Shown one piece after another: positions 1 through 42,614 of a stretch of 42,664 nucleotides of DNA (its first letter is position 1; each line of letters begins with the position of its first letter). Origin of the DNA: a virus; the UHGV virus genome UHGV-0036008. One strand, given 5' to 3'. The notes beneath the pieces are model-generated. The model had not been told where the DNA came from and ran no database searches. It saw only the letters and a list, made by a program, of their open reading frames with translations. The translations under genes were made by a program, and so were the position numbers.

Positions 1-49
1 AAGGTATACTCTCATACCGTCATGAAAATGGTTTCTATACGGATGAATT

Positions 50-4311: not shown

Positions 4312-5193
4312 TTACATAGATGTTTCGTTTAATTCTTCCCGACGAACGCTGTAAACGTCGGTGGCTTTTGCCAGCAGTTCGTCATCATCTGAAAGTTTTT
4401 GTGCAATGTATTTGTAAGCCTTATCCAGTTCGGAGACAGTGCTGTAATTCATCGCTGCGCTGGTAAAGGCCATCAGCATTTCTTCTGGATCACGGCTATC
4501 CGCTTTACGAGTTTGCTCATCAGGCTTTTTCACTGGTTTAGCGTTGATCAGACTGTTCATTCCCGCAGCAGTAGTTGTTTGCGGAGTAATGTCTCGCTCA
4601 ACGCGCGGTGCCGTTTCCTGTAATTCGTCAGGGGTGTAAACACCGAGAAGCACATCAGGAGCGTGCAGGCGAGCCCATCGTTTCGTGCAAAGATAGGCAA
4701 GCTGCTGGCGCGGATCCTGTTCCCACAATGGAGAGTTACGCACTCCGGCTTGCGCCATACTGATGGTAAGCTCACGGGGGTCTGCTTCTCCTTTAAGAAC
4801 TGCTGACACAGTTACCGTCAGATTCGGTGATTTATCTGTTTTGCCGTTAACATTCGACCAGTCACCGCTCCAGCGATAATTCAGGCGTGTCGCCAGCAGG
4901 CTGGAAGAGGATACGACCGCGTTTACCAACTGTGCTTCGTAGCCTAACGTTCCGTTTACCACATGCGTTTTCTGCGCCACGGCGAAAGGGTTCATTCCCC
5001 ACTGTGCCGCCTGCATGGTCACCGCCAGACAATCGGCAGGTTTGCCTTCAAGATGTTTCGGTACAGTCGCTTTGCTTTGTGACATCAACTCCGCGAAACG
5101 CACCAGTTGATTCATGCCCTCCGGGCTGAAGATTGCCGCAGCAGTACCTACAGTTGCGCCTGGTTGTGATGTGATTGCGATATCATTGCTCAT
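4312..5193 (-). CDS. Single-strand annealing recombinase (RecT/Red-beta-like)
   Basis: 293 aa; ...RVERDITPQ segment resembles lambda Bet; gene order and translational coupling with upstream exonuclease gene. Confidence 0.6.
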   Translation of the reverse strand: MSNDIAITSQPGATVGTAAAIFSPEGMNQLVRFAELMSQSKATVPKHLEGKPADCLAVTMQAAQWGMNPFAVAQKTHVVNGTLGYEAQLVNAVVSSSSLLATRLNYRWSGDWSNVNGKTDKSPNLTVTVSAVLKGEADPRELTISMAQAGVRNSPLWEQDPRQQLAYLCTKRWARLHAPDVLLGVYTPDELQETAPRVERDITPQTTTAAGMNSLINAKPVKKPDEQTRKADSRDPEEMLMAFTSAAMNYSTVSELDKAYKYIAQKLSDDDELLAKATDVYSVRREELNETSM

Positions 5194-6468: not shown

Positions 6469-6559
6469 TTACCTCGGTCTGTTACCGTTGAGGTAATAAT
6501 TATGCGTATTTGGTTTGATGTCAATAGATATGAGTTAAAAAAATTACCCATCAGGTAAT
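6469..6559. promoter_or_regulatory. OL-like operator cluster: TTACC half-site plus two ATTACC-N5-GGTAAT palindromes
   Basis: Sites at about 6482..6497 and 6543..6559 between repressor terminator and leftward early operon. Confidence 0.6.
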
Positions 6560-12720: not shown

Positions 12721-12799
12721 TGCCGCCAGTTAAAGTTGTGATTATCACTTTGGTGATGATAGTGATTGCGAGAATCATGTCTGGTGAAATTGGGTGGAT

Positions 12800-13144
12800 A
12801 TGGTAATGACCAAGGCAGCAGCAGAGCGCAAAGCCGCTCAGATAGCCAGACAAGCTGCATCTGGTGTGCGTAAGCTGGAGATTGTGCTTGATGCTCAGGA
12901 AATTGAAATGCTGGAGCGTAACTGTGCCACACGTCGCCCCGGGCGTGCGCCTTACGAATTTGGTGAGTATATAGCGTTACTGATCCGCCAGGATGATGCG
13001 CGCGTGCACGGGCGTATAAAATCGATCAGCAGAAAACGTTGCGGTAAGTGCGGCGAGAGAGTTCCTGTGAATTCATGCCCGTGTAATGGTGACTCGCAAT
13101 GCTGGGTGACTAAAGGCTGGCATGAAACGAAATTAATATTGTGA
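12800..13144 (+). CDS. Hypothetical protein with C-terminal Cys4 zinc-ribbon; candidate late regulator
   Basis: CGKCG...CPCNG..QCW motif; last gene before terminase; stop embedded in GTGACATGTCAC palindrome. Confidence 0.35.
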   Translation: MVMTKAAAERKAAQIARQAASGVRKLEIVLDAQEIEMLERNCATRRPGRAPYEFGEYIALLIRQDDARVHGRIKSISRKRCGKCGERVPVNSCPCNGDSQCWVTKGWHETKLIL

Positions 13145-13152
13145 CATGTCAC
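13141..13152. repeat. Perfect 12-bp palindrome GTGACATGTCAC (copy 1)
   Basis: Identical copy at about 15406..15417; the two copies bracket terS-terL. Confidence 0.7.
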
Positions 13153-13229
13153 GAGTGGGTTATGCATGATGAATTTGATGGGTTTTGAATACTGCCGCCA
13201 ACTATGGCGGCTTTATTTTGCATGGTACT

Positions 13230-13264
13230 ATTACCACAACGGTAACTATTACCACGGTGGTTAT
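13230..13264. promoter_or_regulatory. Tandem ATTACC-N5-GGTAA(C/T) sites directly upstream of, and overlapping, the terS start codon
   Basis: ATTACCacaacGGTAAC then ATTACCacggtGGTTAT read from sequence. Confidence 0.5.
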
Positions 13265-13859
13265 GATGCCTGCTGAACCTAAAACCTATAAACGCAAATC
13301 AACGCAATTTAAGCCACTAACAGCAATGCAGGAGGCTTATTGCCAGTCATACATCAAAACGCCTGAAAACCAGACTCAGGCTGCGATTAATGCAGGATTC
13401 TCCCCAAATACAGCGGCAGTTAAAGCCAGTGTCATGATGCGCGATGAACGCATTCAGAAACGGATTGCCGAGTTGATGGAGGAGCGCAACAAACGAATGC
13501 GCGTCAGTGCTGATTACGTTCTCATGCGCCTGGTGGAGATCGACCAGATGGACGTGATTGACATTCTCAACGACGATGGGAGCCTTAAGCCAATCCGCGA
13601 GTGGCCGAAAATCTGGCGCACTACGCTTAGCGGCTTTGATCTGTCATCGACCATCATGAACATGAACGAGGATTCGATAGAGACAATCCTCAAAAAAATT
13701 AAATGGCCTGACAAGGTGAAGAACCTCGAACTGATTGGTAAGCACGTCGACGTCAACGCATTCAAAGAACGCCTGGATGTTAATGTGAATGTGACAATTG
13801 CTGATCGCATAGCAGCAGCCAGGAAGCGACTCAAAGAACGTCAGGATGGCAATCAGTGA
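13263..13859 (+). CDS. terS: Terminase small subunit (Terminase_2-type)
   Basis: LTAMQEAYCQSYIKTPENQTQAAINAGFSPNTAAVKAS motif; start at internal MM of track ORF; stop overlaps terL start. Confidence 0.75.
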   Translation: MMPAEPKTYKRKSTQFKPLTAMQEAYCQSYIKTPENQTQAAINAGFSPNTAAVKASVMMRDERIQKRIAELMEERNKRMRVSADYVLMRLVEIDQMDVIDILNDDGSLKPIREWPKIWRTTLSGFDLSSTIMNMNEDSIETILKKIKWPDKVKNLELIGKHVDVNAFKERLDVNVNVTIADRIAAARKRLKERQDGNQ

Positions 13860-15331
13860 CAGATGCAGCGTTATCTCCTGAAGAACAGTTGATCGAGGAT
13901 ATTGCAGGGTTCACTCACGATCCGCTTGGCTATGCCCTCTATGCGTTCCCATGGGGGGAAGAGGGGACTGAACTGGCACATGCCACCGGCCCACGTCAGT
14001 GGCAGGCTGATGCGTTCCGAGAGATACGTGATCACCTGCAGAATCCAGAGACGCGATATCAGCCGCTTATGCTGGCACGTGCTTCTGGTCACGGTATTGG
14101 TAAATCCGCATTCATCTCAATGCTGATCAACTGGGGCATGTCCACTTGCGAGGATTGTAAGGTCGTGGTGACCGCCAACACCGACAACCAGCTACGAACG
14201 AAGACCTGGCCGGAAATTATCAAGTGGTCAAACCTTGCTATCACGAAAGACTGGTTTACCTGTACCGCTACCGCGATGTACAGCAATGACCCTGGGCACG
14301 ACAAGCGGTGGCGAGCTGACGCAATCCCCTGGTCTGAGCACAACACTGAGGCATTCGCCGGACTACACAACGAGCGTAAACGCATCATCGTGGTATTTGA
14401 TGAAGCGTCGAACATTGCGGATCTGGTGTGGGAAGTTGCCGAGGGTGCGCTAACGGACGAAGACACTGAGATTATCTGGGTGGCTTTCGGAAACCCTACA
14501 CGTAACACCGGGCGTTTCCGTGAATGTTTCCGCAAATACAAACACCGCTGGAAAACTGCGCAGATTGACAGCAGGACGGTGGAAGGCACCAACAAACAGC
14601 AGTTGCAGAAATGGGTTGATGACTACGGGGAAGATAGCGACTTCGTTAAAATCCGTGTGCGTGGCATATTCCCTGATGCATCTGAATTGCAGTTTATCCC
14701 TACCGGTCTTACTGACGAGGCAATGAAACGGGTGGTAACCGCTGCGCAGGTTGCACATGCTCCGGTGATAATCGGCGTTGACCCGGCATACTCCGGCGTT
14801 GATGACGCTGTGATATACCTGCGGCAGGGGCTACACAGTAAGGTGCTGTGGACTGGCAACAAGACTACCGACGATCTGATTATGGCGAAGCGTATCGCTG
14901 ACTTTGAAGACCAGTATCAGGCTGACGCGGTGTTCATCGACTTCGGTTACGGAACCGGTTTGAAGTCAATCGGTGACGGCTGGGGTCGTACATGGCAACT
15001 TGTTCCGTTCGGTGGCGCGTCTACTGACCCGCAGATGCTTAACAAGCGTGGGGAGATGTTCAACTCATGTAAGACATGGCTGAGGCTGGGCGGCATGCTG
15101 GATGACCAGGAAACTGCAGACGACCTGTCGGCGGCAGAGTACAAAGTTCGCGTGGACGGTAAAATCGTTATCGAACCGAAGGAGGATATCAAGGAGCGGC
15201 TTGGGCGTTCGCCGGGTAAAGGCGATGCGCTACTGCTGACGTTTGCGTTCCCTGTGTCGAAGCGTCTGCGAATTCCCGGTCAGCAGAACCAGCAAGGCAA
15301 GGCCATCACAGATTACGATCCCTATGCTTAA
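13856..15331 (+). CDS. terL: Terminase large subunit
   Basis: 491 aa; Walker A-like ASGHGIGKS; GTG start overlapping terS stop; typical size and position. Confidence 0.85.
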   Translation: MTDAALSPEEQLIEDIAGFTHDPLGYALYAFPWGEEGTELAHATGPRQWQADAFREIRDHLQNPETRYQPLMLARASGHGIGKSAFISMLINWGMSTCEDCKVVVTANTDNQLRTKTWPEIIKWSNLAITKDWFTCTATAMYSNDPGHDKRWRADAIPWSEHNTEAFAGLHNERKRIIVVFDEASNIADLVWEVAEGALTDEDTEIIWVAFGNPTRNTGRFRECFRKYKHRWKTAQIDSRTVEGTNKQQLQKWVDDYGEDSDFVKIRVRGIFPDASELQFIPTGLTDEAMKRVVTAAQVAHAPVIIGVDPAYSGVDDAVIYLRQGLHSKVLWTGNKTTDDLIMAKRIADFEDQYQADAVFIDFGYGTGLKSIGDGWGRTWQLVPFGGASTDPQMLNKRGEMFNSCKTWLRLGGMLDDQETADDLSAAEYKVRVDGKIVIEPKEDIKERLGRSPGKGDALLLTFAFPVSKRLRIPGQQNQQGKAITDYDPYA

Positions 15332-15374
15332 TCCGCTGGTGGGGATAATATCGTTGATATCCTCTGGTGAGGAT

Positions 15375-15408
15375 AAAACAAAGCCAGCTCATAGGCTGGC
15401 TGTTTGTG
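15375..15408. terminator. Bidirectional intrinsic terminator between terL and convergent moron gene
   Basis: AGCCAGC-TCATAG-GCTGGCT hairpin flanked by A-run and T-rich tract. Confidence 0.5.
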
Positions 15409-15417
15409 ACATGTCAC
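15406..15417. repeat. Perfect 12-bp palindrome GTGACATGTCAC (copy 2)
   Basis: Identical to 13141..13152 including flanking TTGTGACATGTCACG. Confidence 0.7.
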
Positions 15418-15421
15418 GGCG

Positions 15422-15844
15422 TTAGAAGGTTATTTTATCGAATGCGGCGTTGATTGCCTTGGCGTCCTGCTCAGCACCAACCACATCAAGTAAAGATCTT
15501 TTACTAAGCACTTCAGCCAGGCATTGTAACTTCATGTTGTATAAGTTTTCGCGCATGTAATCATCATCACTTTTTTCTTTGGCGTATACAGCGCGAGAAA
15601 TATCAAACACATTGCCTTTTTCCATTTCAGTTTTCTGCGCTGAAATCCAGTCATGGCAAGTAACTCCTATTCCATGGTCATCGCTAAGCGTTAACCCGGC
15701 AAGTCGCTCACCTGGAATTGCTTCACAAAGCATTTCATTTCCTGCAAAAACACCATAAAAAATTGAGTCATCACCCTGAACAATGCGTACATATTTGCAC
15801 GGCCATTCATTTAGATATTTAGCTAGCATGTCGGCTGTTTTCAT
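15422..15844 (-). CDS. Hypothetical moron protein downstream of phage tRNA
   Basis: 140 aa from internal Met of track ORF (MKTADMLAKYLNEWPCKYV...); AGGTGA RBS; preceded within 10 nt by a terminator hairpin plus U8. Confidence 0.45.
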   Translation of the reverse strand: MKTADMLAKYLNEWPCKYVRIVQGDDSIFYGVFAGNEMLCEAIPGERLAGLTLSDDHGIGVTCHDWISAQKTEMEKGNVFDISRAVYAKEKSDDDYMRENLYNMKLQCLAEVLSKRSLLDVVGAEQDAKAINAAFDKITF

Positions 15845-15853
15845 GATCTCACC

Positions 15854-15879
15854 TAAAAAAAATGCCCGGCGAATCGGGC
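15854..15879 (-). terminator. Intrinsic terminator or attenuator immediately upstream of moron gene RBS
   Basis: GCCCGATTCGCCGGGC hairpin followed by U8 on minus strand; coordinates approximate. Confidence 0.45.
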
Positions 15880-15956
15880 GAACTGGAAGCAATGAGTTAT
15901 GCCTTCCGTGGCTGTACTGGTTTACAGCATGAAGCCATCGCAATGGCGTCATGCTG

Positions 15957-15999
15957 TAAAAAGGGCGGTGATAGTCCTTCAAGGGAAACCATCACCGCC
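15957..15999 (-). terminator. Intrinsic terminator downstream of tRNA-Arg
   Basis: GGCGGTGAT(N18)ATCACCGCC hairpin followed by CUUUUU on minus strand; coordinates approximate. Confidence 0.45.
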
Positions 16000-16042: not shown

Positions 16043-16119
16043 TGGCGTGGCATGCAGGATTCGAACCTGCGACCAACCGCTTAGAAAGCGGTTGCTCTGT
16101 CCAGCTGAGCTAATGCCAC
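16043..16119 (-). tRNA. tRNA-Arg (anticodon UCU), phage-encoded, argU-like
   Basis: 77-nt cloverleaf read from reverse complement: acceptor GTGGCAT/ATGCCAC, D-arm GCTC/GAGC, anticodon stem ACCGC/GCGGT with loop TTTCTAA, T-arm GCAGG-TTCGAAT-CCTGC, 3' CCA. Confidence 0.85.
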
Positions 16120-16440: not shown

Positions 16441-16457
16441 GTTACCTGAAAGGTAAT
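16441..16457. promoter_or_regulatory. ATTACC-N5-GGTAAT-type site (GTTACCtgaaaGGTAAT) in divergent region between tRNA locus and head operon
   Basis: Read from sequence. Confidence 0.5.
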
Positions 16458-16767: not shown

Positions 16768-18447
16768 ATGGCGGAAACAACTAAAGAGCGATTGAACAAA
16801 CAGTTCGCACAACTTGAAAGCGAGCGTCAGTCGTTCGAGCCGCACTGGCGCGAGTTGAGTGATTACATCAACCCGCGTGGTTCCCGCTTTCTGACTTCTG
16901 AGGTCAACCGTAACGATCGACGCAATACACGCATTATTGATTCGACCGGGACTATGGCGGCGCGCACTCTCGCCAGCGGCATGATGTCAGGCATCACAAG
17001 CCCCGCGCGTCCGTGGTTTCGCCTGGCTACGCCAGATCCTGAAATGATGGATTATGGCCCTGTTAAGTTGTGGCTTGAGGCGGTGCAGAACCGCATGAAC
17101 GATATGTTCAATAAGTCGAATCTCTATCAGTCGCTGCCGCAGTTATACGGAAGCCTCGGCACATACAGCACTGGTGCAATGGCAGTGCTGGAGGATGACG
17201 AGGACATCATTCGCACAATGCCATTCCCGATAGGCAGTTACTACCTGGCTAACTCACCTCGTGGCAGTGTGGACACCTGTTTTCGCAAGTTCTCTATGAC
17301 TGTTCGTCAGCTTGTTCAGGAGTTCGGGCTAAATAACGTCAGCGAATCCGTAAAAAGCATGTGGGAAAGCGGAACCTACGAGAAGTGGATTGAAGTGATG
17401 CATTCGGTTTACCCGAACATTGACCGCGATACATCGAAGCTGGATAGCAAGAACAAGCCATTCAAATCGGTTTATTACGAGGTTGGTGGCGATAACGACA
17501 AGTTGTTGCGTGAGTCCGGATTCGATGAGTTTCCAATTATGGCTCCGCGCTGGGAAGTTAACGGCGAAGATGTTTATGGATCATCATGCCCGGGTATGCT
17601 GGCGCTTGGACCTGTTAAGGCATTGCAGCTTCTCCAGAAGCGCAAGTCGCAGTTGATTGATAAAGCCACCAATCCGCCGATGGTTGCTCCGACTTCCCTC
17701 AAGAATCAGCGTGCCTCCCTTCTTCCTGGCGACATCACGTATATCGATCAGATTACTGGTCAGGATGGTTTCAGGCCTGCTTATCTGGTTAACCCCAGTA
17801 CAGCAGATTTGGTGGCAGACATTCAGGACACCCGTCAAATCATTAACAGCGCCTACTTTGTCGATCTGTTCATGATGTTGCAGAACATCAATACCCGCTC
17901 GATGCCTGTTGAAGCGGTGATCGAAATGAAAGAAGAAAAACTTCTGATGTTGGGGCCGGTTCTGGAGCGTCTGAACGACGAATGTCTTAATCCTCTCATT
18001 GACCGCGCTTTCTCGATGATGGTGCGTAAAAACATGCTGCCGCCACCGCCTGACGCGATGGAAGGTATGCCCCTGAAGGTCGAATACATTTCCGTCATGG
18101 CTCAGGCGCAGAAGTCTATCGGCCTGTCCAGTCTGGCGTCCACGGTTAACTTCATTGGTCAACTTGCGCAAGCGAAACCAGAAGCTCTCGACAAACTCAA
18201 CGTTGATCAGGCGATCGATGCATTCGCTGATATGTCCGGAGTGTCTCCAACCGTCATTGTTCCGCAGGAACAGGTTGAGCAGGCTCGCCAGCAACGGGCA
18301 CAGCAACAACAGCAGCAACAAATGATGGCGATGGGGATGGCGGCGGCACAGGGTGCCAAGACGCTAAGCGAAGCTAAAACTTCGGATCCGAGTGTTTTGT
18401 CAGCTATGGCGAATGCAGTTAGTGGTCAGGGTGGGCAATCACAATGA
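16768..18447 (+). CDS. Portal (head-to-tail connector), T7 gp8-like
   Basis: 559 aa; Gln/Met/Ala-rich C-terminus (QQQQQQQMMAMGMAAAQGA) and overall pattern resemble T7-type portals; follows terL. Confidence 0.75.
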   Translation: MAETTKERLNKQFAQLESERQSFEPHWRELSDYINPRGSRFLTSEVNRNDRRNTRIIDSTGTMAARTLASGMMSGITSPARPWFRLATPDPEMMDYGPVKLWLEAVQNRMNDMFNKSNLYQSLPQLYGSLGTYSTGAMAVLEDDEDIIRTMPFPIGSYYLANSPRGSVDTCFRKFSMTVRQLVQEFGLNNVSESVKSMWESGTYEKWIEVMHSVYPNIDRDTSKLDSKNKPFKSVYYEVGGDNDKLLRESGFDEFPIMAPRWEVNGEDVYGSSCPGMLALGPVKALQLLQKRKSQLIDKATNPPMVAPTSLKNQRASLLPGDITYIDQITGQDGFRPAYLVNPSTADLVADIQDTRQIINSAYFVDLFMMLQNINTRSMPVEAVIEMKEEKLLMLGPVLERLNDECLNPLIDRAFSMMVRKNMLPPPPDAMEGMPLKVEYISVMAQAQKSIGLSSLASTVNFIGQLAQAKPEALDKLNVDQAIDAFADMSGVSPTVIVPQEQVEQARQQRAQQQQQQQMMAMGMAAAQGAKTLSEAKTSDPSVLSAMANAVSGQGGQSQ

Positions 18448-18740
18448 CAGATTACGAAGACGATCAACTGAAAGAAGAAAACGCCCGTAAGCAACGTGAC
18501 ATGGCACAGCGTGAAATTGATGACATTTGCTTTGTCATGAGCAGTGAACAGGGGCGTCGCGTTGTCTGGTCGGTGCTGGAGAAAGGCCGTGTGTTTTCCG
18601 CTATCTCACCGATGGACGCTATGGCAATGGCATTTAATGAGGGGCAACGCAATCTGGCGCTGGAACTGTTTCAGCGCGTTATGGCGCATTGCCCTGAACA
18701 GTATTTGAAGATGGCCAAAGAGGCCAGTGAACAGGAGTGA
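18444..18740 (+). CDS. Hypothetical head-assembly protein
   Basis: 98 aa; ATGA overlap with portal stop; position between portal and scaffold. Confidence 0.45.
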   Translation: MTDYEDDQLKEENARKQRDMAQREIDDICFVMSSEQGRRVVWSVLEKGRVFSAISPMDAMAMAFNEGQRNLALELFQRVMAHCPEQYLKMAKEASEQE

Positions 18741-19446: not shown

Positions 19447-20439
19447 ATGACAATGGCTGTTAAAGGCTTAACTGCGCTAACGCTGGCTGACTGGGGTAAG
19501 CGCGTCGATCCAAACGGGAAAGTCGATAAGATTATCGAGCTTCTCGGTCAAACTAACCCGATCCTTCAGGATATGCCTTTTGTCGAAGGGAACCTTCCTA
19601 CCGGACACCGAACCACCATTCGTTCTGGTTTACCTTCAGCTACCTGGCGTTTGCTGAACTATGGCGTACAGCCAAGCAAATCAACCACAGTGCAGGTAAC
19701 CGATTCCGTTGGCATGCTGGAAACCTATGCGGAAGTCGATAAGTCACTGGCTGATCTGAACGGCAATACCGCCGAATTCCGCCTTTCTGAAGACCGCGCA
19801 TTTATTGAAGCGATGAATCAGCAGATGGCGCAGACGCTGTTTTATGGTGATTCCAGCGTTAACCCTCAGCAGTTTATGGGACTGTCCTCCCGCTATTCCA
19901 GCCTGTCTGCGGGTAATGCTCAGAACATCATTGATGCTGGTGGCACGGGTACAGATAACACCTCAATCTGGTTAGTGGTGTGGGGCGAAAACACCGTGCA
20001 TGGCATCTTCCCGAAAGGGCAGAAGGCTGGCATCCAGATGGAAGATAAAGGCCAGGTGACACTGGAAGATGCTAATGGCGGCAAGTACGAAGGCTATCGC
20101 ACCCATTACAAATGGGATAACGGACTTGCTCTGCGTGACTGGCGTTATGTTGTTCGCATTGCAAACATCGATGTCAGCAATATTTCAGAACCATCCTCTG
20201 CCGCAAATATTGCGAAGTTGATGGTTAAAGCACTACATCGCATTCCAAACCGTGGCATGGGCCGCCCGGTGTTCTACATGAACCGCACTGTAGGCCAGGC
20301 TCTTGATCTGCAGTCTCTGGAGAAAACATCTCTGGCTATCAGCGTAAAAGAGACAGAAGGCGAGTGGTGGACTTCATTCCGTGGTGTACCAATCCGTGAA
20401 ACTGATGCGCTTCTGGAAACAGAAGCCCGCGTGGTGTAA
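19447..20439 (+). CDS. Major capsid protein
   Basis: 330 aa; position after scaffold; followed by a strong stem-loop (about 20454..20475), as common after major capsid genes. Confidence 0.7.
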   Translation: MTMAVKGLTALTLADWGKRVDPNGKVDKIIELLGQTNPILQDMPFVEGNLPTGHRTTIRSGLPSATWRLLNYGVQPSKSTTVQVTDSVGMLETYAEVDKSLADLNGNTAEFRLSEDRAFIEAMNQQMAQTLFYGDSSVNPQQFMGLSSRYSSLSAGNAQNIIDAGGTGTDNTSIWLVVWGENTVHGIFPKGQKAGIQMEDKGQVTLEDANGGKYEGYRTHYKWDNGLALRDWRYVVRIANIDVSNISEPSSAANIAKLMVKALHRIPNRGMGRPVFYMNRTVGQALDLQSLEKTSLAISVKETEGEWWTSFRGVPIRETDALLETEARVV

Positions 20440-35638: not shown

Positions 35639-35655
35639 ATTACCCGAAAGGTAAT
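35639..35655. promoter_or_regulatory. ATTACC-N5-GGTAAT site between stand-alone domain gene and tailspike
   Basis: ATTACCcgaaaGGTAAT. Confidence 0.5.
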
Positions 35656-40982: not shown

Positions 40983-41153
40983 CATGGCATTTTTCATGGT
41001 ACTGATTTCCGGTGACGGTATATAAAACGGTACGGGAAAAATTGAGATTTGGAAAAATGTTATCACTCAATTGGTTATGGTTATCGTAAATAATTGAGTG
41101 GGAATGATTCCGCGTCTGGCACAGCCAGGCACCTGATGGCATGAAATGCCGCT

Positions 41154-41281: not shown

Positions 41282-41390
41282 CCGATACCATGCTGCGTTC
41301 TTTTGTGTGTTCATGGTATTAATATTCTATAAGTTACTGTTTCGTAAGAAAAAATACGATAAATTCGAGATTTTTTCAGCATGGTATCGG
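41282..41390. repeat. Perfect 14-bp inverted repeat CCGATACCATGCTG / CAGCATGGTATCGG plus extra CATGGTAT copies upstream of second integrase
   Basis: Read from sequence; candidate integrase arm-type sites or att-region elements. Confidence 0.5.
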
Positions 41391-41411
41391 AGACGAAGAA
41401 GGACAAGGTAC

Positions 41412-42614
41412 ATGCTGACCGATACCAAGCTGCGCAATCTCAAGCCCAGGGACAAACTCTACAAAGTGAATGACCGGGAAGGTCTCTATGTGGCAGTGAC
41501 TCCAGCCGGCTCCATCTCGTTCCGTTACAACTACTCAATCAACGGTCGGCAGGAGACCATCACCTTTGGGCGTTATGGTGTCGGTGGCATCACCCTGGCC
41601 GAAGCCCGCGAGCTGTTGGGTGACGCCAAGAAGATGGTTGCGGCGGGCAAGTCGCCGGCCAAGGAGAAAGCCCGAGACAAGGCGCGGGTGAAAGATGCAG
41701 AGACGTTCGGTGCCTGGGCGGAGAAGTGGCTGCGTGGCTACCAGATGGCCGACTCCACCCGCGATATGCGCCGCTCGGTTTATGAGCGTGAGCTGAAGCC
41801 GAAATTCAGCAATCAGAAGCTGGTGGAGATCACCCACGAAGACTTGCGGGCGCTGGCTGATGCCATTGTTGAGCGAGGCGCACCGGCCACCGCCGTTCAT
41901 GTGCGTGAAATCGTGTTGCAGGTATTTCGCTGGGCCATCGAGCGTGGGCAGAAGGTCGAAAACCCGGCAGAACTGGTGCGCCCAACAAGCATCGCTCGAT
42001 TCGAGCCACGTGACCGAGCGTTGACGCCAGAAGAAATTGGGCTGATGTACCAGTACATGGAGCGAGTGGGCACAAGCCCAACAAACCGTGCGGCGGCCAA
42101 GCTGTTATTGCTGACGATGGTGCGCAAGAGCGAGCTGACCAATGCGACCTGGAGCGAGATCAATTTCAGCGAAGCGTTGTGGACGATTCCAAAGGAGCGG
42201 ATGAAACGCCGTAACCCGCACCTGGTATTTCTGTCCCAGCAGGCTCTGGATATTTTCATTGCCATGAAAACCTTTGCCGGTGGTTCCGACTTCGTTTTGC
42301 CATCACGGTACGACTCGGATGCGCCGATGAGCGCTGCCACACTTAACCAGGTGCTGACGCTGACTTACAAGGCGGCGCAGAAAGATGGGAAGTCACTTAC
42401 CAAGTTCGGACCGCATGATTTGCGGCGCACAGCCAGCACGCTGTTGCATGAGGCCGGCTACAACACCGACTGGATCGAGAAGTGCCTGGCGCACGAGCAG
42501 AAGGGCGTGAGGGCTGTCTACAACAAGGCTGAGTACCGCGAGCAGCGGGCGGCGATGTTGCAGGATTGGGCCGATATGATTGATGAGTGGACTTCGGGAG
42601 GCAGTAAGGGTTGA
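41412..42614 (+). CDS. int: Tyrosine integrase, P4-like family (second copy, diverged paralog)
   Basis: Start at internal Met of track ORF (MLTDTKLRNLKPRDKLYKVNDREGLYVAV); same domain signatures as ORF 50..1300, clearly diverged. Confidence 0.85.
   Translation: MLTDTKLRNLKPRDKLYKVNDREGLYVAVTPAGSISFRYNYSINGRQETITFGRYGVGGITLAEARELLGDAKKMVAAGKSPAKEKARDKARVKDAETFGAWAEKWLRGYQMADSTRDMRRSVYERELKPKFSNQKLVEITHEDLRALADAIVERGAPATAVHVREIVLQVFRWAIERGQKVENPAELVRPTSIARFEPRDRALTPEEIGLMYQYMERVGTSPTNRAAAKLLLLTMVRKSELTNATWSEINFSEALWTIPKERMKRRNPHLVFLSQQALDIFIAMKTFAGGSDFVLPSRYDSDAPMSAATLNQVLTLTYKAAQKDGKSLTKFGPHDLRRTASTLLHEAGYNTDWIEKCLAHEQKGVRAVYNKAEYREQRAAMLQDWADMIDEWTSGGSKG

Follow-up and report, generated by a model that had tools for sequence, protein, structure and literature searches.

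The stretch of DNA analysed here (UHGV virus genome UHGV-0036008; 42,664 nt, hereafter the window) belongs to an epsilon15/phiV10-like podophage (Uetakevirus), with up to 97% identity to the E. coli phages PAS61, TL-2011b and phiV10, and carries two exact copies of a perfect 12-bp palindrome, GTGACATGTCAC. The early genes end in a small regulator gene (reg) and are followed by the first palindrome copy (site 1), a terminator, two Rep-type operators, terS and terL, and then by a bidirectional terminator, the second copy (site 2), a minus-strand moron with a tRNA-Arg gene, and the portal/structural operon. The features in question are listed below (ORF, open reading frame):

12806..13144, plus strand: regulator gene reg, about 112 amino acids, PHROG 536; ORF open from 12794
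13141..13152, strandless: palindrome site 1, GTGACATGTCAC, holding the TGA stop of reg (13142-13144); the obligatory copy
13194..13219, plus strand: intrinsic terminator ending the early-right unit, hairpin 13194-13211 GCCGCCAACTATGGCGGC with T-run TTTATTTT, 41 nt past site 1
13223..13264, plus strand: predicted start of the terminase unit, extended -10 TGGTACTAT at 13223-13231, overlapping the Rep-type operators
13230-13246 and 13248-13264, plus strand: Rep-type operators ATTACC-N5-GGTAA, from a sequence scan
13266-13859, plus strand: terS (Terminase_2)
13856-15331, plus strand: terL (ORF)
15382..15401, both strands: bidirectional intrinsic terminator hairpin AGCCAGCTCATAGGCTGGCT, common to terL (plus) and the converging moron (minus)
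15406..15417, strandless: palindrome site 2, GTGACATGTCAC; an auxiliary copy
15422..15982, minus strand: variable moron ORF of 186 amino acids without a family match, read in the direction of site 2, with exactly 4 nt between its stop codon and the palindrome
32442..32466, plus strand: structural-operon terminator (the position of a site 3 in relatives), intact and identical to that of phiV10; palindrome absent

An exact-match search of the whole window found two copies only, the 12-mer occupying 13141-13152 and 15406-15417 and its 15-nt extension, TTGTGACATGTCACG, occupying 13139-13153 and 15404-15418, just as a sequence-only reading of this DNA had described the pair. That reading had also placed the first copy over the stop of the gene upstream of terS, which is the TGA at 13142-13144 of ORF 12794-13144, and the second just past the terL terminator, and site 2 indeed begins 4 nt after the hairpin at 15382-15401; it ends 4 nt short of the stop codon of the minus-strand ORF 15422-15982. 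The further statement that the palindrome occurs nowhere else holds for exact copies but not once a single mismatch is allowed, when a third copy, GTGACATGGCAC, appears at 18496-18507 within ORF 18444-18740; phiV10 has a GTGACATGGCAC copy too, and the one in the window, whose significance is uncertain, is possibly a weak site or a chance match. The repeat is real and non-random, as the reading had supposed: with up to one mismatch the 12-mer has 3 matches against 0.09 expected, a number reached by 0 of 100 shuffles. By chance, a 40-kb genome should have about 0.04 copies of GTGAC-NN-GTCAC, and base composition predicts about 0.3 copies of the bare 12-mer per 5 Mb. A short dyad-symmetric site, over-represented and conserved as this one is, is what would be expected of the operator of a phage-encoded RHH-type (ribbon-helix-helix) transcription factor.

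The product of reg is homologous to epsilon15 gp49, phiV10 gp55 and N15 gp46, and its start is placed at 12806 after homologues that open with MAKSAAERK. It matches PHROG 536 (E=1e-52), a family that PHROGs labels 'transcriptional regulator', and its 549 database homologues are all unnamed. The protein comprises a basic N-terminus, a core that may resemble an RHH fold and a C-terminal cysteine cluster (CxxC...CxC...C). Searches returned no Pfam family and no PDB relative by sequence or profile, and Pfam scans gave neither a match to the N- and C-terminal domains of MatP nor any similarity to Q families. An AlphaFold2 model of poor quality (pLDDT, the predicted local distance difference test score, 62) shows an extended segment followed by helices 32-45 and 54-77, an order compatible with RHH plus a Cys-rich module, and there is a weak, sub-threshold match to the YbfE-like RHH family NF008671 (E=0.017). 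Reg is predicted to be an RHH-like dimer whose C-terminal part is a Cys-rich module.

We then examined 80 IMG/VR loci picked through the reg protein and not through the motif, of which 78 were usable. Site 1 is a perfect 12-mer at the reg stop codon, with the TGA within GTGAC, in 77 of the 78 loci (31 of 32 distinct flanks), and the DNA downstream of it is one of at least five unrelated sequences (the terS leader, two inserted ORFs, LexA-box promoters and an epsilon15-type leader). The relatives offered 50 distinct flanks for site 2, 33 with a perfect copy, 5 with one uncompensated mismatch and 12 with none; in these 12 the post-terL region has been swapped, terminator included in 11. The location of the palindrome on both sides of the terminase operon, as the sequence-only reading had put it, is true as to position but incidental, since site 1 goes with reg, site 2 is often lost, a further copy lies about 17 kb downstream in relatives, and the terS-terL unit (13266..15331) merely happens to sit between two sites spaced 2.27 kb apart. 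Of 5,426 complete E. coli genomes, 503 have the 211-nt context of site 1, each time as a single copy next to terS, so that it probably marks a common prophage and not a host repeat. A raw IMG/VR scan with the 15-mer was dropped as evidence of breadth because roughly 100 chance matches were expected and the isolated matches were within that number, so that only matches linked to reg or its family were used.

Homologues of reg with 28-65% identity keep GTGAC-NN-GTCAC at the same place in quite different elements (identity to reg, site, position):

P2-like contig L028: 55%, GTGACATGTCAC, 10 nt beyond the matched end of reg, the longest ORF running through
Yersinia vB_YenM_56.17 (P2-like): 40-42%, TTGTGAC-GC-GTCACAA, enclosing the stop
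Pectobacterium ZF40: 65%, TTGTGACATGTCACA, 2 nt downstream of the stop
N15 gene 46 and phiKO2 gp45: 35-38%, CGTGAC-TG-GTCACG, enclosing the stop
Vibrio VPHZ6: 34%, CGTGAC-AG-GTCACG, 1 nt downstream of the stop
L023 (a methylase/integrase element): 46%, GTGACATGTCAC, enclosing the stop

We also selected, again through the protein, a second set of 80 loci (each about 3.3 kb) with 35-62% identity to the Vibrio member; 52 of them carried GTGAC-NN-GTCAC, against about 0.003 expected per locus. The palindrome lay no more than 60 nt from the stop in 34 loci, most frequently with an embedded TGA, and in one lineage its GTG is the start codon of reg, 2 nt past the stop of the upstream gene. The module of reg and palindrome is also present in P2-like phages and in elements with no terminase gene nearby. 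On this comparative evidence, reg and its putative site are a portable module in temperate phages of three morphotypes (podo-, myo- and siphoviruses).

Eight related or distant genomes examined have two or three copies each. Epsilon15, SPN1S and Tyrion have three perfect ones, and phiV10 has two together with a one-mismatch site 1. The three positions in these relatives are the stop of the reg homologue (gp49/gp55), the side of the post-terL terminator and the end of the roughly 17-kb structural operon, where site 3 stands 0-3 nt ahead of the terminator and, in epsilon15, holds the TGA of gp18. The window has a different last gene there (31584-32435), and lost site 3 because the upstream sequence was replaced, with the exchange junction exactly at the palindrome position of phiV10 (phiV10 19493-19522). 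Over the distal end of this operon (28193-32441), ORFs of 1129 and 283 amino acids stand in place of the 824-amino-acid virion protein and small last gene of phiV10 and epsilon15. A degenerate copy (GTGACATGGCAT or GTGACATGTCAT) was seen near attP, at the end of the Rz/lysis cassette, in epsilon15 (26618) and SPN1S (26722); it may be a decayed fourth boundary site, and the window has no counterpart of it.

The arms GTGAC and GTCAC are invariant across lineages and only the central dinucleotide varies, with one centre for all copies of each genome examined: AT in the three copies of ZF40 (5125, 7622 and 14944) and also in epsilon15-like phages, TG/CA in the three copies of N15 (28550, 33237 and 39269, each as the 14-mer CGTGACTGGTCACG) and AG in both copies of VPHZ6. 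Across the second-sample loci and the separately analysed genomes, the centre follows the residues of the predicted N-terminal beta-strand of reg:

strand K-L-E-L-x-L-D: centre AT, 11 cases
strands I-N-E-[IV]-R-A-R, V-E-L-R-A-R and E-K-R-F-N: centre GC, 9 cases
strand R-R-[DE] or R-R-I-D: centre TG/CA, in N15, phiKO2, L271 and L281
strand I-K-R-V-E-V: centre CG, several cases
strand K-[VR]-[VI]-E-V: centre AG, GG or GT, several cases

Site and protein thus co-occur and covary, bar one protein type (K303/L243, see below), which is the behaviour expected if an RHH beta-ribbon reads the centre of the site. N15 and phiV10 share E. coli as host yet differ in their centres, which argues against a host factor, and the specificity, judged from these pairings, is phage-encoded. 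Variants of the site are uncompensated single changes (GTGATATGTCAC, GTGACATGCCAC and GTGACAGGTCAC) and therefore fit a protein site on DNA, not an RNA stem. Taken as a whole, the comparisons make it very probable that the palindrome is a DNA site bound by reg. The proposal of the sequence-only reading that these are binding sites for a late regulator, with the 12800-13144 product as candidate, accordingly stands as regards a regulator site, which the comparative evidence bears out, but 'late' has no support.

The arrangement of the copies relative to genes was assessed over 198 distinct GTGAC-NN-GTCAC contexts in all fetched DNA, and 113 of these have the order stop codon, palindrome, GC hairpin with T-run. 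The distance from stop to palindrome is -4 (TGA inside) in 36 contexts, +4 in 55, +1 to +3 in 8, +7 in 6 and larger in 10, and these classes span 49 different C-terminal hexapeptides. Because the +4 spacers (CACC, CGCC, CGCT, CTCT, TGCC, AGCC, TACC, CGTC, TTCC and TGTT) are fixed in length and variable in sequence, this looks like a length constraint rather than descent; the moron position is occupied in relatives by many unrelated genes with the same 4-nt spacing to the palindrome. The gap between palindrome and hairpin is 0-5 nt in 73 of 107 contexts, and mostly longer (18-40 nt) at reg's own copy. The palindrome itself, with a stem of at most 4 bp and no T-run, does not qualify as an intrinsic terminator; true terminators adjoin it. 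An operator overlapping the 3' end of its regulator's own gene is what the window, N15, phiKO2, the Yersinia P2-like phage and many IMG/VR lineages appear to have.

Other copies lie elsewhere. In ZF40 those at 5125 and 7622 are in the early genes gp08 and cII-like gp12, one per early operon and flanking cI/cro, and in N15 the copy at 33237 is inside repA, about 620 nt from its start; placements such as these would allow shut-off of early and replication genes. The third N15 copy follows the final gene of the repA operon at about 50 nt and precedes the -35 of the anti-repressor-leader promoter by 24 nt. Finally, in N15 (gene 47) and in two Uetakevirus variants (inserted ORFs) the ribosome-binding site of a co-transcribed gene comes 1-3 nt past the palindrome, with no terminator.

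The reading that we prefer, with moderate confidence, is that the palindrome is the cognate site of an RHH-like reg protein in a portable module, marking the boundaries of transcription units as a conditional roadblock and autoregulating reg. Binding would be repressive, a roadblock or boundary irrespective of direction; we favour this because it is the sole reading that fits all classes of site location, convergent junctions included, because RHH proteins are usually repressors and because direct precedents exist, and because copies in early genes, ahead of co-transcribed genes and on the reg start codon suit neither an activator nor an antiterminator. Before reg accumulates, RNA polymerase would cross the site and stop at the ordinary terminator, so that the intrinsic terminator beside the site would serve whenever reg is absent (early infection or the lysogen). 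Reg, made from the end of the early operon, would then fill the sites and block polymerase arriving from either side, and since the block would fall at or within a few bases of the stop codon, the transcript would lack a stop. A trailing ribosome could then release the polymerase, and the truncated product could be removed by trans-translation. The outcome would be autoregulation of reg and tight insulation of the early from the terminase unit and of the terminase unit from the converging moron. Stop codons would be kept close to the site because the ORF is then still open when polymerase stalls, a rationale taken from the finding that a ribosome meeting a polymerase roadblocked by a DNA-bound protein before the stop brings about transcript release and trans-translation (PMC13584721). 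We infer each of these components, namely binding by reg, repression by roadblock and the involvement of ribosome and transfer-messenger RNA, from comparative sequence data. That they amount to an undescribed factor-dependent, direction-independent stop or insulator, in which an RHH/Zn protein sits on a stop- or start-codon GTGAC-NN-GTCAC, the ribosome clears the polymerase and trans-translation destroys the product, is a more speculative proposal, which we regard as possible and rather doubtful.

The closest parallel is LacI, which reportedly autoregulates by a transcriptional roadblock at lac O3 (attributed to Abo et al., 2000). As proposed for reg, the repressor gene has an operator at its own 3' end and further operators lie elsewhere. 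At O3, LacI stops polymerase before the stop codon, giving a non-stop mRNA and an SsrA-tagged product, whereas for reg the roadblock is a supposition. The two proteins are unrelated (reg being RHH-like with a Cys cluster, about 112 amino acids), the reg site literally holds the stop codon, and the extra reg copies are at operon ends by intrinsic terminators, unlike the extra lac operators, which are at the promoter. Truncated lacI mRNA and SsrA tagging caused by LacI at O3, at the 3' end of lacI, are described in PMC3711431. The comparison with the RHH repressors of phages and plasmids (Arc, Mnt, CopG and omega) is a different one. These act at short palindromic operators, and reg resembles them in being small and, by prediction, dimeric, in its predicted strand-helix-helix order, in its dyad site and in the covariation of the site centre with the N-terminal strand, which a beta-ribbon lying in the major groove would lead one to expect; it differs in having no Pfam or PDB family match, in its extra Cys-rich C-terminal module and in sites that lie away from promoters except possibly in one lineage.

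Several results weigh against our reading. About one close relative in three lacks site 2 or has it in mutated form (19 of 50 distinct flanks, 24 of 65 loci), and site 3 is lost in the window, so that the auxiliary copies are not essential. Many Vibrio-type homologues have no copy inside 1.5 kb. The covariation has one exception, the K303 protein type, with AC in K303 but GC in L243. The RHH fold is unproven, given a pLDDT of 62, no PDB relative and a sole family match below threshold. Short distances from stop to terminator are common in compact phage genomes, and the geometry may partly be compaction; a roadblock at the stop would, moreover, deprive each unit of its last protein (in epsilon15, gp18 is a case in point), a cost that the reading leaves unexplained. 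The motif is not mentioned in any paper searched, and the ZX5 paper has nothing on the reg gene or the palindrome.

Of the other explanations, a late switch resembling lambda Q deserves the most attention, improbable as we take it to be. Palindrome-bound reg would load onto polymerase and render it terminator-resistant into terS-terL, or would activate a late promoter. The layout is indeed that of Q and qut, since in most lineages reg closes, or nearly closes, the early genes where these meet the late ones, with the site immediately downstream and then a terminator before the late genes (in epsilon15-like phages, L095 and L122); the Cys-rich module could conceivably contact polymerase, and in the window the left half-site together with CATGAT gives a weak promoter score (9/12) just upstream of the 13194 terminator. 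Yet this promoter-like match is found in the window only, for which the GTGACA half-site was rejected as a -35; no promoter or pause element is conserved, and the spacing from site 1 to the terminator varies (2, 18, 22-23 and 40 nt). The window and epsilon15 are 18 bp apart in their distance to the predicted terS promoter, leaving no fixed helical phase, and class-I-type activation of that promoter was rejected likewise, the palindrome centre being at about -91.5 in the window but near -73.5 in epsilon15, out of phase and with the terminator intervening. Late transcription would meet the terminator before the palindrome at site 2, and copies in early genes, before co-transcribed genes without a terminator and on the reg start codon stand where antitermination would be senseless. 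N15 and P2-like phages, besides, already encode Q or Ogr, and reg has no similarity to Q families. Architectural looping, by which reg oligomers would bridge dispersed copies and so isolate or co-regulate the enclosed unit in the manner of lambda OL-OR or lac O1-O2-O3, seems to us less probable again, as an exclusive account; it is compatible with the roadblock. Two to three identical, high-information sites 2-20 kb apart per genome would suit it, as would the enclosure of cI/cro between the 5125 and 7622 copies in ZF40, and in the lac system it is by looping that the lacI-end auxiliary operator works (PMC3711431). Reg tetramers are without support, though, some genomes (Yersinia vB_YenM_56.17) have a single copy, sites 2 and 3 are often lost, and the fixed spacing to the stop codon is left unexplained.

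The remaining alternatives dispense with reg as a binder or with DNA as its target. We think it very unlikely that the element acts as RNA, as a short hairpin (GUGA-CAUG-UCAC) in the 3' untranslated region, by the terminator, that affects termination, stability or translation termination. It would be transcribed between stop codon and terminator hairpin, and its distance from the stop is tightly constrained, but the stem has just 4 bp, compensatory changes were not found, the arms are invariant and do not covary, the flanks extend the helix inconsistently and some copies are inside ORFs or are read from either strand; the linkage to a DNA-binding-type protein and the strand covariation point to duplex DNA. 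A little less credible still is a recombination linker, a conserved joint that would promote moron and module exchange with no protein partner. The palindrome does coincide with mosaic junctions, site 2 adjoins morons of at least ten unrelated families and the window lost site 3 by an exchange ending there, so that the module boundaries from recombination suggested by the sequence-only reading survive as a side-effect; as the cause they fail, because a linker can explain neither why podo-, myo- and siphoviruses keep the same arms around lineage-specific centres nor the uniform centre within genomes, the covariation with the reg strand and the constant 4-nt spacer of variable sequence. We give least weight to a site for a host protein, MatP or other, or for terminase (pac/cos). 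The matS consensus of the E. coli Ter macrodomain is GTGACRNYGTCAC, that is GTGAC-RNY-GTCAC, and the palindrome shares with it identical pentamer arms and dispersed copies and, should the prediction for reg hold, an RHH-containing binder; matS has 13 bp with a 3-bp centre, however, against 2 bp in every copy and lineage here, protein and sites are phage-encoded at 1-3 copies per genome, reg lacks MatP domains, phages of the same host (N15 and phiV10) differ in centre, and the site-1 context is single-copy and prophage-borne in the E. coli genomes. Site 1 lies just upstream of terS, a common pac/cos location, and the phiV10 record opens inside it, but that record was simply opened after the gp55 stop, an annotation choice, and phiV10 site 1 is itself mismatched. 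The packaging-related role that the sequence-only reading had entertained fails, judged from relatives and not from the virion ends of this phage, on N15, whose cos is at coordinate 1, far from its copies at 28.5, 33.2 and 39.3 kb, on the two to three copies per genome and on the presence of the module in P2-like phages and away from any terminase gene. Partition sites were rejected as well. The SopB centromeres of N15, IR1-4, are GTGCGACC-NN-GGTCGCAC (PMC7205306), and resemble the palindrome in being several identical palindromes with a 2-bp centre, scattered and in some cases near regulatory regions; their sequence (N15 41123) and their binder (SopB, of the ParB family) are different, and the palindrome is also in integrating phages without sop genes, the epsilon15-like genomes being integrative with no annotated par genes.

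With a roadblock as we propose it, the phage would have a switch set by timing, through which the factor controls its own gene, converging lysogenic-conversion genes are silenced and operon ends are closed to terminator-resistant polymerase. It would also be a natural modular use of ribosome-assisted polymerase release, which was shown only recently, and a compact, orthogonal and tunable part, in which the centre dinucleotide appears to set specificity. A transcription factor with its operator is a known kind of system, and the family, motif and architecture appear undescribed in the searchable literature; the placement is unusual, over the stop or start codon of the regulator gene itself and in the interval from a stop codon to a terminator. 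The palindrome gives the widespread 'hypothetical' family PHROG 536 a precise DNA motif and a testable function, and accounts for islands of conservation where mosaic segments join. Prophages of the phiV10 type alone bring the family into about 9% of complete E. coli genomes, and N15, phiKO2, ZF40, P2-like, Vibrio and Aeromonas phages have it too.

Several observations concern the surroundings of the two sites. The hairpin of the 13194 terminator is conserved in epsilon15 and Tyrion with a spacer of different length, and hairpin AGCCAGCTCATAGGCTGGCT is followed by TTGTTTTAT on the minus strand, where it was scored, and by TGTTTGTGA on the plus strand. Directly behind site 1, four loci (L029, L185, L186 and L206) have a near-consensus LexA box (TACTGT-N8-ACAGTA) and a TTGAC-type -35, and this LexA-box promoter drives a gene inserted between reg and terS, an SOS-controlled moron. 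The promoter ahead of terS in the window is predicted from the letters; its extended -10 (TGnTACTAT) overlaps the pre-terS operator in the window and epsilon15 alike, and the epsilon15 homologue of the Rep operator in the terS leader is annotated 'repressor' (12..27). Rep-type operators (ATTACC-N5-GGTAAT, 0-1 mismatch) lie at 6481, 6543, 7255, 9586, 9648, 13230, 13248, 16441, 33359, 34426, 34519 and 35639, that is, in the immunity region and ahead of every plus-strand late unit (terS at 13230/13248, the portal operon at 16441 and the tailspike at 35639), which suggests that the prophage repressor may act directly at late units. The phiV10-type terS (NC_007804 41..715; window 13185-13265) is annotated from a TTG that would enclose the intrinsic terminator and both Rep-type operators in the coding sequence; the start matching that of epsilon15 (MPAEPK...) is the ATG at 13269, immediately after the ATG at 13266, and the N-terminal extension is probably spurious, the gene being annotated too long.

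Between terL and the portal operon, the variable island holds the tRNA-Arg gene (anticodon TCT; 16043-16119, minus strand), as in several relatives. An 18-nt inverted repeat (94% complementary, 4-nt gap; 15921-15960) occupies the 5' end of the moron ORF (longest start 15982), and just upstream of it a strong terminator-like hairpin with a 14-bp stem is found on the minus strand (15964-15999); together they may be the moron's own control region. A scan with PADLOC defence models gave no match. Two integrase genes are present at the window ends (50-1300 and 41307-42614; proteins 54% identical), the attP core is at 41093, and a 301-bp repeat of 92% identity (1309-1609 versus 33423-33719) lies in two Bro-N/antirepressor-like paralogues, 1334-2053 and 33447-34172, both on the minus strand. 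It is therefore possible that the window runs on into a second element, or that one of its modules has been duplicated.

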